Shown: positions 56,401-62,400 of the stretch, in pieces
Position numbering within the stretch: the stretch's first letter is position 1
Layout: the number at the start of each line of letters is the position of its first letter
Source: Escherichia coli
Lineage (GTDB): Bacteria > Pseudomonadota > Gammaproteobacteria > Enterobacterales > Enterobacteriaceae
Direction: 5' to 3' (one strand)
NCBI RefSeq assembly: GCF_051903065.1
Contig: NZ_CP178438.1
DNA length: 64,000 nt
Made by a program: the position numbers

Positions 56401-59400
56401 ATGAAGTCACCACCGGCAGCGGCACGGTAGAACCCTCCGGGCGCGAACAGGTGGTGCAGTCGCTGGAAGGCGGAATTCTGTATCATCTGAACGTGAAAGT
56501 TGGCGATATTGTCGAACAGGGCCAGCCGCTGGCGCAGCTTAACCGCACCAAAACTGAATCCGACGTCCAGGAAGCGATGTCGCGGCTGTACGCGGCGCTG
56601 GCAACCTCGGCGCGGCTGCGGGCGGAAGTGAGCAATAAACCGTTGGTCTTCCCTGACGAACTGAATAAATTCCCCGAACTTATCGAGTCGGAAACGGCGT
56701 TGTACAACACTCGCCGCGACGGGTTGAACAAAGCCACCACCGGGCTGACGCAGGGGATTAGCCTGGTCAACCGTGAACTGGCGATGACCCAGCCGCTGGT
56801 GAAACAGGGGGCGGCGAGCAGCGTCGAAGTGCTGCGCCTGCAACGCCAGGCCAATGAACTGGAAAACAAACTCAGCGACGTGCGCACGCAATACTACGTT
56901 CAGGCGCGGGAAGAGTTAGCGAAAGCCAATGCGGAAGTGGAAACCCAGCGTTCGGTGATCCGTGGGCGTGAAGACTCCCTCACCAGGCTCAACTTTACTG
57001 CGCCAGTTCGTGGCATTGTTCAGGATATTGACGTCACCACGGTTGGCGGCGTCATCGCCCCCGGTGGTAAACTGATGACCATCGTGCCGCTGGATGAGCA
57101 ACTGCTGATTGAGGCAAAAATCTCCCCGCGCGATGTGGCGTTTATCCATCCGGGGCAAAAATCGCTGGTGAAAATAACTGCCTACGATTACTCCATCTAC
57201 GGCGGCCTGCCGGGAGAAGTAGCGGTGATATCACCAGACACCGTGCAGGATGAAGTGCGGCGCGATGTTTATTACTATCGGGTGTACATTCGCACTTTCA
57301 GCAACCATCTGGAAAACAAAAGCAAACAGCAGTTTCCGATATTCCCCGGTATGGTGGCGACGGTCGATATCCGCACCGGCAAAAAAAGCGTGCTGGATTA
57401 TCTGTTGAAACCCTTTAACAAAGCACAGGAGGCGTTGCGCGAACGATGAACATTAGCGATGTAGCAAAAATTACCGGCCTGACCAGCAAAGCCATTCGCT
57501 TCTATGAAGAGAAGGGGCTGGTGACGCCGCCGATGCGCAGCGAAAATGGTTATCGAACCTACACGCAGCAGCATCTCAACGAATTGACCTTACTGCGCCA
57601 GGCGCGCCAGGTGGGCTTTAACCTGGAAGAGAGCGGCGAGCTGGTGAATCTGTTTAACGACCCGCAGCGTCACAGTGCCGACGTCAAACGTCGCACGCTG
57701 GAGAAGGTGGCGGAGATTGAACGGCATATCGAAGAACTGCAATCTATGCGCAACCAGCTACTGGCGCTGGCGAATGCCTGCCCCGGTGATGACAGCGCCG
57801 ACTGCCCGATTATCGAAAATCTCTCCGGCTGCTGTCATCATCGGGCGGGGTGATTAACGCTTGCGAAAATAGTCGTCCATTATTTTCGTCAACTCCGGAC
57901 GTTCGCCGTCATCATTGATGGCAAAATCCAGAAAAAAAGCATCTGCTTGCGGCGTTCGGTTTTGCGCCATCAACCGGAAGGTGAGGGGGCGATAACTGAC
58001 GTATGCCGGATAGCTGATAACGAATCGGGCAAAGTCAATAAAAAGCGGCGAGTGTGTGAAAAACAGCGCCTGCAAAATTACATCAGCCTTTTCATCCTCC
58101 CCCAAACCTTGTTGGATCATGCTCTTAATACGAGTTTCGCTCAAATTCCCGGCCTCAACAATTTGCCAGGCTTGATCCAGTGAAGGGTACCGGCTGACGC
58201 TCTGCTGCAACTCTTCTGACCAGGTTTCGGATGGGCTGATGTGCTTATCAGGGCCGAAACTCTCCCATGCGCCGGACGGTAATGTTTTCCACTCAGTGAG
58301 TTTGGGAACGTGGCACAGTAGCTCTGTTTTGTGCAGACATTCTCCGCCCGGAAATACCAGGGTTTGTTGCTCATCATTAAAACGGGTTGCCGTGCTGAGT
58401 ACCAGTGTTTTGAGCGGTCGCCCTTCCAGTGCGGCAGCAGTGGCCTTATGGTGCCCGTCGAGCAGAACGCAGAGATAGGAATCAGGGAGATACCAGGCCA
58501 AAGCGCGGGCGTCCGGTTTATCGCGATAAAACGTCACACGCTCAGGATTAAAATGTGATGGCGGCTGTCCAGGAAGAAGAAAACAGGGGGCGGTGTTACA
58601 GAAATAGCAATATTCAGGATCCCAGACGGCAACGGTTGCCGGATTACTGGCGCTATGGTCCGTTGCCGCCCAAAAGAAATGCCCATTGCCATCCGTCGGG
58701 TAAAGTTCACGATCTTCCAGCAGATAATAGCCATCAGCAAGGCATGAGAACAGCGGTGTAAGCGCGGCAAAAGCGTCCGTAAAGCCAGACCATGGGCGAT
58801 TCCAGTTTTCGAGAGCAGACAAAAACCGGGCGGCTCCCTGTTCATCATCCGCAAAACCGCTGTAGACAAATTCCGCGCAGGTGGGGCAGCCGGCCTCGGA
58901 CCAGAAACGTATTACCGGGACATCCTGCCAGCAGAGTGAACGGATAAGCCCATAAGGGTGCGGATCGTAAAGCACACATTGACGCAGAAATCCTTTACCG
59001 GACTTCACCGAAAAAATGACGCCCGCAGCGGTATTTTTCAGCAGACGTACTTCAGGTTTTCGAAAGGGAAAAAGCATGGCCACTCCTTAGCCGAATATTC
59101 AGAACCCTGAACTGTGCCAGAAAATTACGCTGGTGACTATTGCTCTGGAAATGGTAACGGTATCCTTACCCATTAATCCCCGTTTGCACCGAAAGAATAT
59201 GCTGCAAACTTTCTACCATAATGCGCCCCGACTGAAATAAGCCTTCCTGGATTTCGTTGTTAACATTCACAGCGTGAACCAGGGAGGCTAATAATACTAC
59301 TTGCAAGAAGGCAAAAATAAACGCACCGATAATCATAATATGCGTCAGGGGTATTTTCCTTTGCTCCTTCATTTTAAATAACCCACGAACTGGCCTTCTT

Positions 59401-62400
59401 TCATTAAGGCGACTTTTCCTGTGTGATGATAAACAATGACGTTATACAGACCTGACTGATAAACAGTGGCATCTTTATTGTCTTCATCAATTGCACATAA
59501 TGAATCATTGAGATAAGCAAAGTTTTTACTGCTCATTCTAAAGGTCATGCCAAATCCTTTATAAATGGCTTTCTTTGCCGCCTGGGCGTGTTGTGCGGCT
59601 TCTGCATTTTTAAATGCCTGCGCTTCGGAAGCACTTAAAATAGCCGTCTGGCGCTGCTGTTCTGCGAGATAACAGGTGTCATGGCTGACGCCCTGCGCCT
59701 GGCAATCTGCGATGCGGGAAGCGGGTGAGCTACAGCCAGCCAGTAATATAACCGCCAGCAGGGAAAACGATTTAATGGAGCTATTCATCATTGTTAACCT
59801 TAAATAATGTACAAATTAATGAAGAGGTGAACCCGGCAAGCTTCCTTGCTCTTATTTATATTGAGGATTGAAATATTAGAACGAATATCCCACGCCGACA
59901 CCCGCGCCGAAATCAGATTGTGTATCCGCAGAGACACCGGCTTTAATCACGGTATGCGTTCCGGCATTAAAAGATGTTCCTACAGACACCGCAGATTCAC
60001 CGTTGAAGGTTCCCGCTCCCGCTGACACCATCATCAAGTCACCGGTTTTCACCTGGGGTTGTGAGGCGATAGCGATGGCAGATGCAGTTCCCGCATTGGC
60101 TTCATTACGATTATCCTCAACTTCGTTTTTCAGCGAACTGAAATGGTTATTGAGCGTAGTAATCTGTTGGCTATTATCCGCTACTCGTTTTTGCGTGTTG
60201 CTTAACTGCTGATGCGTTTGGGTTACGTCTTGTGTCAGGCTGTCAATTTGTTCATGCGTTTGCGTTGAGTCTTGCGCCAGACGCTGAATTTGTTCCCCGT
60301 ACTGCACACTATCGATATGCTGTTGCGTTGCCTGGTTAGTCGCCAGAGTATCTATTTTTTGTTTTTGTTCTGCTGCAGTACGCGCATTCGCATCATTTTG
60401 TGCTCTCAGTCCGGCGTTAACCATCTCTTGATAATGTGCGTTGGTCTGGGCATCGCCAAGTGCGGAAACCGTTTTTTGCGTCGCGTCGATTTGTTTCTGC
60501 TGATCGTCCATTTGTTGCTGCTGGGTGTCCGCTTGTTCCTGTTGCGCATTGGCAGCGGCTGTCTGTCTGGCGTCAATCATGCTCTGATATCGGGCGGCAG
60601 TCTGCACATCCCCGGTGGCGGCAACGGTTTTCCGGGTTTCGTCGAGTTGTTGCTGTTGGTCAGCAATATCGCTGCGGTTCTGTTCGATATTATTTTTGTT
60701 TTCTGTCACAGCACCGGAAAGTTTGACGCCGTTAATCAGAGCGGTGTTGGCGTTAGCGTTAGCATGGTCAGCCGTTGACTGGGCATGTGTGACATCGCCT
60801 TTTATGTTGGTGACGTCTGACTGCACTGCGGAGACATCATTACGGGTGTCGGCGATGGCGGCTTTATTGGCATCAATATCCGTCTGCGCCACCGTGATGG
60901 CGTGCTGCGCGTCATCAGCTTTCAGTGAAGCCCAGTTGGCGGCATGTTGTGCGTCCTGAATGGCGGTGTCCTGCTCGTTGTCGCGGACGGTCTGTTTGTG
61001 CTCGTTTGATGCCAGCCGTTTCTGCTGGTCAGCAATATCGCTGCGGTTCTGTTCGATATTGTTTTTGTTTTCTGTCACAGCACCGGAAAGTTTGACGCCG
61101 TTCATCAGAGCGGTGTTGGCGTTAGCGTTGGCATGGTCAGCCGTTGACTGAGCATGTGCGACATCGGCTTTTATGTTGGTGACGTCTGACTGCACTGCGG
61201 AGACATCATTGCGGGTGTCGGTGATGGCGGCTTTATTGGCATCAATATCCGTCTGCGCCACCATAATGGCATGGTGCGCATCATCAGCTTTTTGCGACGC
61301 CCAGTTGGCGGCATGTTGCGCGTCCTGAATGGCGGTGTCCTGCCCGTTGTCGCGGACGGTCTGCGCTTGATTGGTTATCGGGTTCAGCGTACTGGCGGGC
61401 TGTACGGGAGAAGCAGTTGTATTTTCCTGAGGCGTCGTTGTCTGGTAATCATGCGCAATCAGATAATTTTGTGCGGCTGCGCTATTTCCTGTCCTTTCTA
61501 AAAATCGACCAATTTTCTGATCAATTTCCACTTGCGACATTCCTGGCTGGATTGCCGCTAATTCTGTCGCTGCCGCCTCAACAGTATCACCCGCAAACGC
61601 AGATGGACTTACTGCGGTAGCAACAACGACAGCCAGTAAAGACAACTTTACAGTATTCATGTATTTTTTCTCGTCCAAAGTAAGTCACATATTTGTTTCT
61701 ATAAGAAACATAAATCGTTGTTATAAGAATTAATCTGCGTTGCAATTTGATCGAAATCTACGCCGACATTTGTGTGATGTAAAGCGCATTTTTGTTTGAT
61801 GTAAGCGTAAACACCACCAATAAGAAACAAAAATTGTTTCTTTTATAAATAAAAAAGGAAATCATTTCGTGCTCTTTCAATGTAAAAAAGAGTAAAGACT
61901 TGTTTTGATAAGCGAAATAAATTCTGTTTCTGGACTAAACGTGAAGCGGTTCCTGATGTGTGCTAAAATGCGTTTCTTTGATAAATCTCAATTTTTAAGA
62001 GGTTTACGCCAGGCAGGAAAATTTAAATGAATGAATTTGAGAAGATTTTTAATGAAATGAATCTGGACCGGGCATTGCTACCGATCCTTTTTCGTTCGAA
62101 CCGGTCGACAGTATGGAAGTATTTAAGCGGCGATAGTACGGCTCCTGCCTCTGCCATGTCGCTGATTATGCTGTTGCAGTTGATCCAGAAACGAAACCCC
62201 GATCTGTTAGCCGAATGGTTAACGCTTTCTGATTTCACCATTCCGCCAGAAGTTTACCTGGACCAGCCTGATTACTGGAAAGGGTGGGTGTATACCCAAC
62301 ATAAGGTCAATAAAAACGTCCTGGAATATCTAAAAAAACACTATCCGGATGAAGACCAAAAAAGTATGGGTAAAGGCCGGGAAGAGTAATTTTGCCTCTA

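Follow-up and report, generated by a model that had tools for sequence, protein, structure and literature searches.

Genes Between cueR and ybbJ

The 64,000-nt stretch of the Escherichia coli chromosome that was analysed (contig NZ_CP178438.1; hereafter the window, to which positions refer) carries four minus-strand genes in the interval bounded by cueR and ybbJ. They encode an adhesin with a YadA anchor and, downstream of it, a lipoprotein, a 68-aa membrane protein and a 407-aa protein (Table 1). The assignment to the chromosome is clear; through cueR, the region finds a match in 5424 of 5426 complete E. coli genomes. Since cueR adjoins ybbJ directly in K-12, the interval between them is a variable island, and it corresponds to O-island 29 of O157:H7, which in EDL933 comprises 2,643 bp with z0638, z0639 (gmrA) and z0640 (PMC5826968). 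At this same locus z0638 is the lipoprotein gene and z0639 the adhesin orthologue; the O157 island differs in that it lacks the 407-aa gene and has a shorter adhesin. On balance we favour, with a slight preference, the view that the island holds two unrelated neighbours, namely an adhesin-linked envelope pair and an independent 407-aa protein.

All three open reading frames (ORFs) that a preliminary description had placed downstream of the adhesin gene were found on the minus strand and are annotated in RefSeq, as "hypothetical protein" or "lipoprotein". The 84-nt gap between adhesin and lipoprotein genes and the overlap of the lipoprotein stop with the 68-aa start (ATGA) were both confirmed. 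The gap of 82 nt before the third gene is correct for a 409-aa product that starts at an in-frame GTG at 59083, whereas it measures 88 nt for the 407-aa product, whose ATG is preceded, at a distance of 5 nt, by the Shine-Dalgarno sequence AAGGAG. RefSeq annotation, dN/dS values (lipoprotein and 68-aa genes), homologues of each of the three and transcription of z0638 place these ORFs beyond chance. The spacer between adhesin and lipoprotein genes has no T-tract terminator, and a promoter and terminator scan gave nothing above shuffled expectation. The full 4.6-kb region is matched by only 30 E. coli genomes. The sole 100%-identical genome, NZ_AP045789.1, has the region split by an IS903B-family transposase, with two aligned pieces over 5.7 kb for the 4.6-kb query.

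Table 1. Positions of the island genes and their neighbours in the window.
Feature	Position	Strand	Remark
600-aa YadA-anchor adhesin (gmrA orthologue)	59876-61678	-	Pfam YadA_anchor
Adhesin-stop/lipoprotein-start spacer, 84 nt	59792-59875	-	weak 5-bp hairpin only
140-aa lipoprotein, z0638 orthologue	59369-59791	-	
68-aa single-pass membrane protein	59166-59372	-	
407-aa ORF	57854-59077	-	ATG start
120-aa z0640 orthologue, third annotated O-island 29 gene	62027-62389	+	divergent from adhesin gene
cueR	57446-57853	+	
ybbJ	62492-62950		
BapA/SiiE-like giant repeat adhesin, 6925 aa	33335-54112	+	intact ORF
Type I secretion ABC transporter, split in two ORFs	54116-56277	+	

A Short Autotransporter Gene Published as gmrA

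The adhesin, with 600 aa in the window and 338 aa in its O157 orthologue, ends in a YadA anchor (Pfam PF03895, residues 541-600, E 3e-11; E 2.6e-11 in the O157 protein). YadA head or stalk domains were not matched in Pfam by either protein, and the passenger gave only weak coiled-coil-type matches. RefSeq names the gene product "YadA-like family protein" and, for the O157-type gene, "YadA family autotransporter adhesin". These features predict a short, head-less and all-coiled-coil trimeric autotransporter adhesin. The length of its passenger is highly polymorphic, as seen from the two orthologues and from the small number of genomes that match the full region. A segment of about 120 aa is directly duplicated in the coiled-coil passenger between 60700 and 61400 (TVRDN(G/E)QDTAIQDAQHAANWAS…NKNNIEQNRSDIADQQ, present twice). 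About one in four E. coli genomes has the adhesin, with O157:H7, avian pathogenic (APEC) and neonatal meningitis (NMEC) strains among them; homologues found in a search with its last 120 residues were E. coli fragments only.

The published deletion-primer arms for gmrA flank the orthologous adhesin CDS in an O157-type genome (L001; loci from other genomes are cited here by such numbers). By this mapping, the gene published as that of the "transcriptional activator GmrA" is the predicted adhesin gene, and GmrA bears every sequence hallmark of an outer-membrane autotransporter. This affects how the published motility phenotype should be read.

Linkage of the Lipoprotein to the Adhesin

In the complete E. 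coli genomes, the segment with the lipoprotein and 68-aa genes, the adhesin anchor and the junction between adhesin stop and lipoprotein start were each matched at a coverage of at least 80% in 1413/5426. The equal counts indicate that adhesin and lipoprotein are strictly co-inherited in E. coli, and indeed the lipoprotein gene lies directly downstream of the adhesin gene in 1413/1413 genomes that carry either gene.

Beyond E. coli, one genome per species and a lipoprotein profile were used, which yielded 80 species loci. These were translated in all frames and scanned with iterated hidden Markov models for the adhesin anchor, lipoprotein, 68-aa and 407-aa families. A full-length lipoprotein homologue is encoded at 34 of the 80 loci, and an ORF with a YadA anchor is located immediately upstream on the same strand in about 23 of these 34 species, with Escherichia, Enterobacter, Phytobacter, Rahnella, Hafnia, Yersinia and Ewingella among the linked genera. 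Pantoea conspicua (1/34) has its adhesin gene 1.9 kb upstream of the lipoprotein gene, and nine further species contain a variant or split lipoprotein that is still downstream of a YadA-anchor gene. In Rahnella woolbedingensis (L024, 4155-8745) the order adhesin-lipoprotein-adhesin-lipoprotein is found as a tandem, with anchor ORFs that end at 5951 and 8279 and lipoprotein ORFs that start at 6001 and 8332; from this tandem the pair appears to behave as a unit. A neighbour-joining tree showed linked and unlinked lipoproteins interleaved down to about 35-45% identity, and therefore the linkage is old and has been kept repeatedly. One record titled Chryseobacterium sp. 18061 (L021) has a lipoprotein locus that is near-identical to that of Enterobacter sp. 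JUb54 (L019) and is probably a contaminating or mislabelled enterobacterial contig.

The Lipoprotein Family and Its Predicted Structure

The lipoprotein has a signal peptide and a lipobox (SLLAVILLAG followed by C20) that is conserved in its family. Its +2 residue is Ser; family members with the lipobox Cys have Ser, Thr, Gln, Val, Ala or Tyr at this position, and Asp occurs at +2 in none of the members aligned. Because Asp at +2 is absent, the E. coli sorting rule predicts that the protein is sorted to the outer membrane. With HMMER, 107 relatives were retrieved in a full scan of 1.84 billion cluster representatives. The family is laid out as an LLAG-C lipobox, a conserved segment RMxxC-x9-CYxAEQNRQ, a variable linker rich in Ala, Gln and His, and a conserved C-terminal domain of about 65 residues. 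The gene is under strong purifying selection (dN/dS 0.03-0.06). In the AlphaFold2 (AF2) model (pLDDT 82, above 90 for the C-domain) residues 23-71 form a helical hairpin with the conserved C30 and C40, and residues 76-139 an 8-stranded beta-barrel. E103, Y111, G114 and Y121 are among the conserved residues.

Database searches with NCBIfam, PADLOC and PHROGs gave nothing significant for any of the three proteins downstream of the adhesin, nor did Pfam for the lipoprotein and the 407-aa protein, and a PDB sequence search with the family profiles of these two returned nothing meaningful. Weak matches to TraV, XAC1346, TraQ and Rz-spanin were dropped as they covered the signal peptide and lipobox or were far below the cut-offs. 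Four long proteins that matched the C-domain (P0185, P0209, P0210 and P0222) were dismissed as low-complexity or repeat proteins. The lipoprotein belongs to an unannotated family and may represent a new variant of autotransporter-associated lipoprotein.

The two parts of the protein can be encoded separately. In some Citrobacter and Franconibacter they are specified by two genes in succession, the first for a hairpin mini-lipoprotein of about 70-80 aa and the second for a protein of about 116-120 aa that carries the barrel domain and has a signal peptide of its own. Such split genes were seen with an adhesin gene upstream (L079, L087 and L088) and, in Citrobacter/Raoultella, without adhesin (L073, L078, L080, L082, L089 and L090).

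Is the Lipoprotein an Adhesin Helper?

The linkage suggests that the z0638 lipoprotein would be a conserved downstream partner of a short, head-less autotransporter. A possible form of this, which we put somewhat below the level of probable, is that the lipoprotein resides at the outer membrane on its periplasmic side, where it contacts the anchor or the passenger as a dispensable accessory. The contact would be made with the 12-stranded anchor of the autotransporter or with the passenger in transit, and the lipoprotein would act as a non-essential accessory in the way that SadB and TpgA do elsewhere, but with a different fold.

Published work on O-island 29 bears directly on this proposal. 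We mapped the z0638 deletion primers on the O157-type genome, where the arms flank the lipoprotein CDS exactly. In O157:H7, z0638, gmrA and z0640 are expressed in Dulbecco's modified Eagle medium (DMEM) and are all off on HeLa cells (PMC5826968 Table S3), from which it follows that the lipoprotein is expressed and is co-regulated with the adhesin gene. Several observations weigh against the proposed partnership and are gathered here. Firstly, deletion of z0638 left motility unaffected, unlike deletion of the adhesin gene, gmrA alone complements the deletion of the island, and adherence to HeLa and Caco-2 cells was unchanged when O-island 29 was deleted (PMC5826968). The lipoprotein is dispensable for the sole phenotype so far assigned to gmrA, and the published deletions argue against an essential role; the z0638 deletion was scored for motility only (PMC5826968). 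Secondly, about 10 of the 34 species with a full-length lipoprotein have no autotransporter within 6 kb of it, plasmids of Klebsiella and Citrobacter carry stand-alone copies, Buttiauxella, Aeromonas and Pseudomonas have mini-lipoproteins that consist of the hairpin alone, and the species loci were sampled from the lipoprotein side only. Thirdly, the nearest folds of the barrel are lysozyme inhibitors and not chaperones. Lastly, we infer the helper role from linkage only.

The fold matches form the basis for the main rival, in which the lipoprotein is a small periplasmic or surface barrel that binds or inhibits an external factor in the manner of the lysozyme inhibitors MliC/PliC or of the Neisseria adhesin complex protein. 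In this view it would be linked to the adhesin only as co-expressed host-interaction cargo and not as a helper. MliC/PliC and the Neisseria adhesin complex protein were among the best fold matches for the barrel and resemble it as small 8-stranded antiparallel barrels that are often lipid-anchored; avidins were among the structure matches listed for the model. Sequence membership of the MliC family was not supported, with no match in Pfam and none in PDB sequences, and MliC/PliC are without the N-terminal Cys-Cys helical hairpin that is present here. We consider such a cargo role rather unlikely.

The 68-aa Membrane Protein

The 68-aa protein has a basic N-terminus, one transmembrane (TM) segment at about residues 12-33 and a C-terminus of about 35 aa that is predicted to be periplasmic and includes the conserved stretch GLFQ..R....E..Q..LS. 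The gene is under purifying selection (dN/dS 0.26-0.40). Its homologues are confined to Escherichia/Shigella and to L008, a related locus with a 65-aa version that likewise overlaps the lipoprotein stop; none of these homologues has a recorded Pfam domain. The published study of the island nowhere mentions the gene (PMC5826968), although according to our own primer mapping the z0638 deletion also removes its start codon.

In other genera the overlapping slot after the lipoprotein gene is occupied by unrelated small ORFs. Rahnella, Serratia and an Enterobacterales metagenome-assembled genome (MAG; L039) have an unrelated soluble ORF of about 70-80 aa, and the ORF of Pantoea conspicua has 69 aa and a C-terminal TM segment. 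This indicates that the second gene of the pair is replaceable and that the lipoprotein is the constant. The soluble ORF is conserved (MKKHHTDQFKHLPPEQQ…GHTATLSKF…) in L018, L022-L024, L026, L028, L029, L031, L033, L036 and L039. All of these except Serratia silvae (L036) show an ATGA overlap between the lipoprotein stop and the start of this ORF, which in Serratia silvae begins a few bases past the stop.

Two small overlapping genes for a lipoprotein and a membrane protein in a variable island could also hitch-hike with the adhesin as a cassette of the selfish or conflict type, for instance a spanin-like lysis pair or a toxin-immunity pair. A faint PHROGs match of the lipoprotein to an Rz-like spanin (E 0.033) would fit this, but it involves the signal peptide only and spans residues 11-27, which is the lipobox region. 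Moreover, PADLOC gave no matches and no phage genes are nearby, the lipoprotein is conserved where the second gene is swapped (Rahnella, Serratia and Pantoea), and strong purifying selection acts on the lipoprotein gene. A conflict cassette is hardly credible. In the partnership that we favour, the 68-aa protein would be a translationally coupled inner-membrane protein that joins the lipoprotein in Escherichia. It would be a recent and genus-specific addition and could connect the pair with the inner membrane.

The 407-aa Protein

The 407-aa protein had been described as rich in Cys and Trp, which holds to a modest degree (11 Cys and 11 Trp, 2.7% each). It consists of an N-terminal beta domain, a core with the ParB/sulfiredoxin (ParB/Srx) fold and a C-terminal alpha-solenoid. 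The fold of the core was found when tested for, and the C-terminal third has structure matches to alpha-solenoid proteins. An alignment of 55 members contains an invariant D207-G-H-H210 followed by K or R, in agreement with the DGHH(R/K)-type nucleotide-site motif of the superfamily, and two near-invariant motifs of the N-terminal domain, CPTC (64-67) and YPTDGNGHFFW (126-136). A Foldseek search against AFDB50 retrieved full-length relatives in Firmicutes, Fusobacteria and one betaproteobacterium, some of which are named ParB-like nuclease or ParB/Srx-domain protein. The protein has no signal peptide, and we read it as a cytoplasmic member of a widespread, uncharacterised ParB/Srx-fold family. 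It counts against this that the Pfam ParBc model matched neither the query nor any of the 55 aligned members. To judge from the superfamily, which includes the N-domain of ParB/KorB, sulfiredoxin, free serine kinase/SbnI and PadC, the protein would most likely bind or turn over a nucleotide via DGHH. It differs from these members by its three-domain organization with a unique N-terminal beta domain and the C-terminal alpha-solenoid, and no DNA-binding helix-turn-helix (HTH) is evident.

The distribution of the gene is separate from that of the adhesin. Any match was found in 965/5426 E. coli genomes, with 270 full-length, and the junction between the 68-aa and 407-aa genes was covered for at least 80% in 163/5426. 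About 695 of the 965 genomes have the gene at about 60% coverage in three aligned pieces that are annotated as hypothetical protein, which suggests a common, internally deleted and probably non-functional allele. An O157-type strain has the order cueR, 68-aa gene, lipoprotein gene, adhesin gene, ybbJ without the 407-aa gene, and E. coli 95-3322 has the 407-aa gene alone between cueR and ybbJ. Homologues without an adhesin are located between ybbJ and cueR in Superficieibacter and next to rihA and hscC in Salmonella, and many members of the family occur in Firmicutes such as Clostridia and Ruminococcus, again without adhesin and with unrelated gene neighbourhoods. All four genes occur in the same order in the cryptic clades Escherichia whittamii and Escherichia sp. 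E1V33 (L012 and L013). For this reason an insertion of the 407-aa gene beside the adhesin module was dropped as an explanation, and differential loss is at least as likely as insertion.

These patterns decide the proposal of the preliminary description that the three genes make up a single accessory module, which serves adhesin biogenesis or regulation. The genes share a strand, are separated by short gaps without a predicted terminator between them, and the four-gene order recurs in the two cryptic-clade genomes. Against this, E. coli strains can have either the 407-aa gene or the adhesin module without the other, relatives of the 407-aa protein exist in Gram-positives, which have no outer membrane, and the protein itself lacks a signal peptide and has a ParB/Srx fold. 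We regard a single module as very improbable. What survives of the proposal is the lipoprotein, which travels with the adhesin, and within Escherichia only also the 68-aa protein, whereas the 407-aa gene is separable. Since it is present with no adhesin in E. coli 95-3322, Salmonella, Superficieibacter and Firmicutes, its place in the module is refuted. The 407-aa gene is unrelated to adhesin and lipoprotein, and as an unrelated ParB/Srx family member it is removed as a false lead.

Several defence nucleases employ the ParB/Srx fold, and the 407-aa protein could be a nuclease or NTPase in defence against phages or plasmids, or an orphan immunity-type protein, instead of a housekeeping enzyme. 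Its patchy distribution and frequent degradation in E. coli (the roughly 695 genomes at about 60%) would agree with this, as would a homologue in a conjugative-element-like region (L092) and another that adjoins an Imm5-like gene (L093). On the other hand, PADLOC and PHROGs gave no matches, six neighbourhoods have no conserved partner gene, and the neighbours in Salmonella and Superficieibacter are ordinary chromosomal genes. A defence role is thus improbable in our assessment, and an independent cytoplasmic ParB/Srx-fold protein is the reading we retain.

Other Genes of the Window

The z0640 F deletion arm ends right before the ATG at 62027, as compared by eye with the translated ORF 61905-62030. 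The sole Pfam match of the z0640 orthologue is weak (MqsA-antitoxin HTH, E 0.12), and the protein may carry a helix-turn-helix. If any O-island 29 product binds DNA, the z0640 orthologue would be the more plausible candidate on these sequence grounds.

On the plus strand the giant adhesin gene is followed by genes for a type I secretion ABC transporter and an HlyD adaptor and by cueR, whose stop codon abuts that of the 407-aa gene. The giant adhesin gene (siiEA) is intact in the window and has an internal stop in the O157-type strain, where its annotation is that of a pseudogene; it was reported to be frameshifted in enteroaggregative E. coli (EAEC) 042 and O157 (PMC2808357). The ABC transporter gene is present as two overlapping ORFs of 585 and 252 aa that span 2162 nt, and its intact counterpart in the O157-type locus L001 has 2163 nt (716-2878). 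The split looks like a one-base frameshift, due either to a pseudogene or to a sequencing error.

Comparison With Known Partners of Trimeric Autotransporters

Two helpers of trimeric autotransporters are known, SadB and TpgA. SadB aids the surface display of the Salmonella autotransporter SadA (PMC3953254), and the analogy to SadB drawn in the preliminary description applies to position only, in that each is a small lipoprotein of enterobacteria whose gene adjoins that of a trimeric autotransporter and apparently shares its operon. Unlinked paralogues exist in both cases as well (YajI for SadB and the stand-alone copies for the z0638 family). The analogy fails for gene order, membrane-sorting signal and fold. 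SadB is encoded upstream of SadA and the lipoprotein described here downstream of its adhesin; SadB is a trimeric inner-membrane protein with Asp at +2 (PMC3953254), in contrast to Ser at this position here; and SadB combines a coiled coil with a MATH-like beta-sandwich instead of a helical hairpin with an 8-stranded barrel. Neither sequence nor fold comparison gave a match to SadB or YajI, and SadB, YajI and BamE were all absent from the fold matches of the lipoprotein.

TpgA, the partner of AtaA in Acinetobacter, is likewise an envelope protein encoded beside a trimeric autotransporter, and both TpgA and the lipoprotein are non-essential for insertion. It is a periplasmic protein with BamE-like and OmpA-like domains (PMC12523085; bioRxiv 10.64898/2026.01.22.700529) and does not have the lipoprotein architecture of z0638, in which no BamE or OmpA domain was detected by Pfam or fold search. 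TpgA has been shown to interact with the anchor from the periplasm, which for the lipoprotein is only a proposal. The lipoprotein is not homologous to SadB or TpgA.

A survey of the neighbours of trimeric autotransporters from 2026 found only TpgA, SadB and DUF2827 and concluded that further helpers are unlikely, but it analysed proteins with a YadA head only (bioRxiv 10.64898/2026.01.22.700529). The adhesin described here was outside this survey because it has the anchor only and no YadA head. We tentatively suggest, as a still doubtful extension of the linkage data, that z0638-type lipoproteins could be a third and structurally new class of dedicated trimeric-autotransporter partner, which would be anchored in the outer membrane, built from a hairpin and a barrel, and specific to the short, head-less coiled-coil autotransporters of Enterobacterales. 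If true, this class would have been missed by the 2026 survey since that was limited to YadA-head autotransporters. Next to SadB and TpgA, a conserved outer-membrane lipoprotein partner would be a testable new helper candidate and a route to the function of widespread, unstudied short autotransporters.

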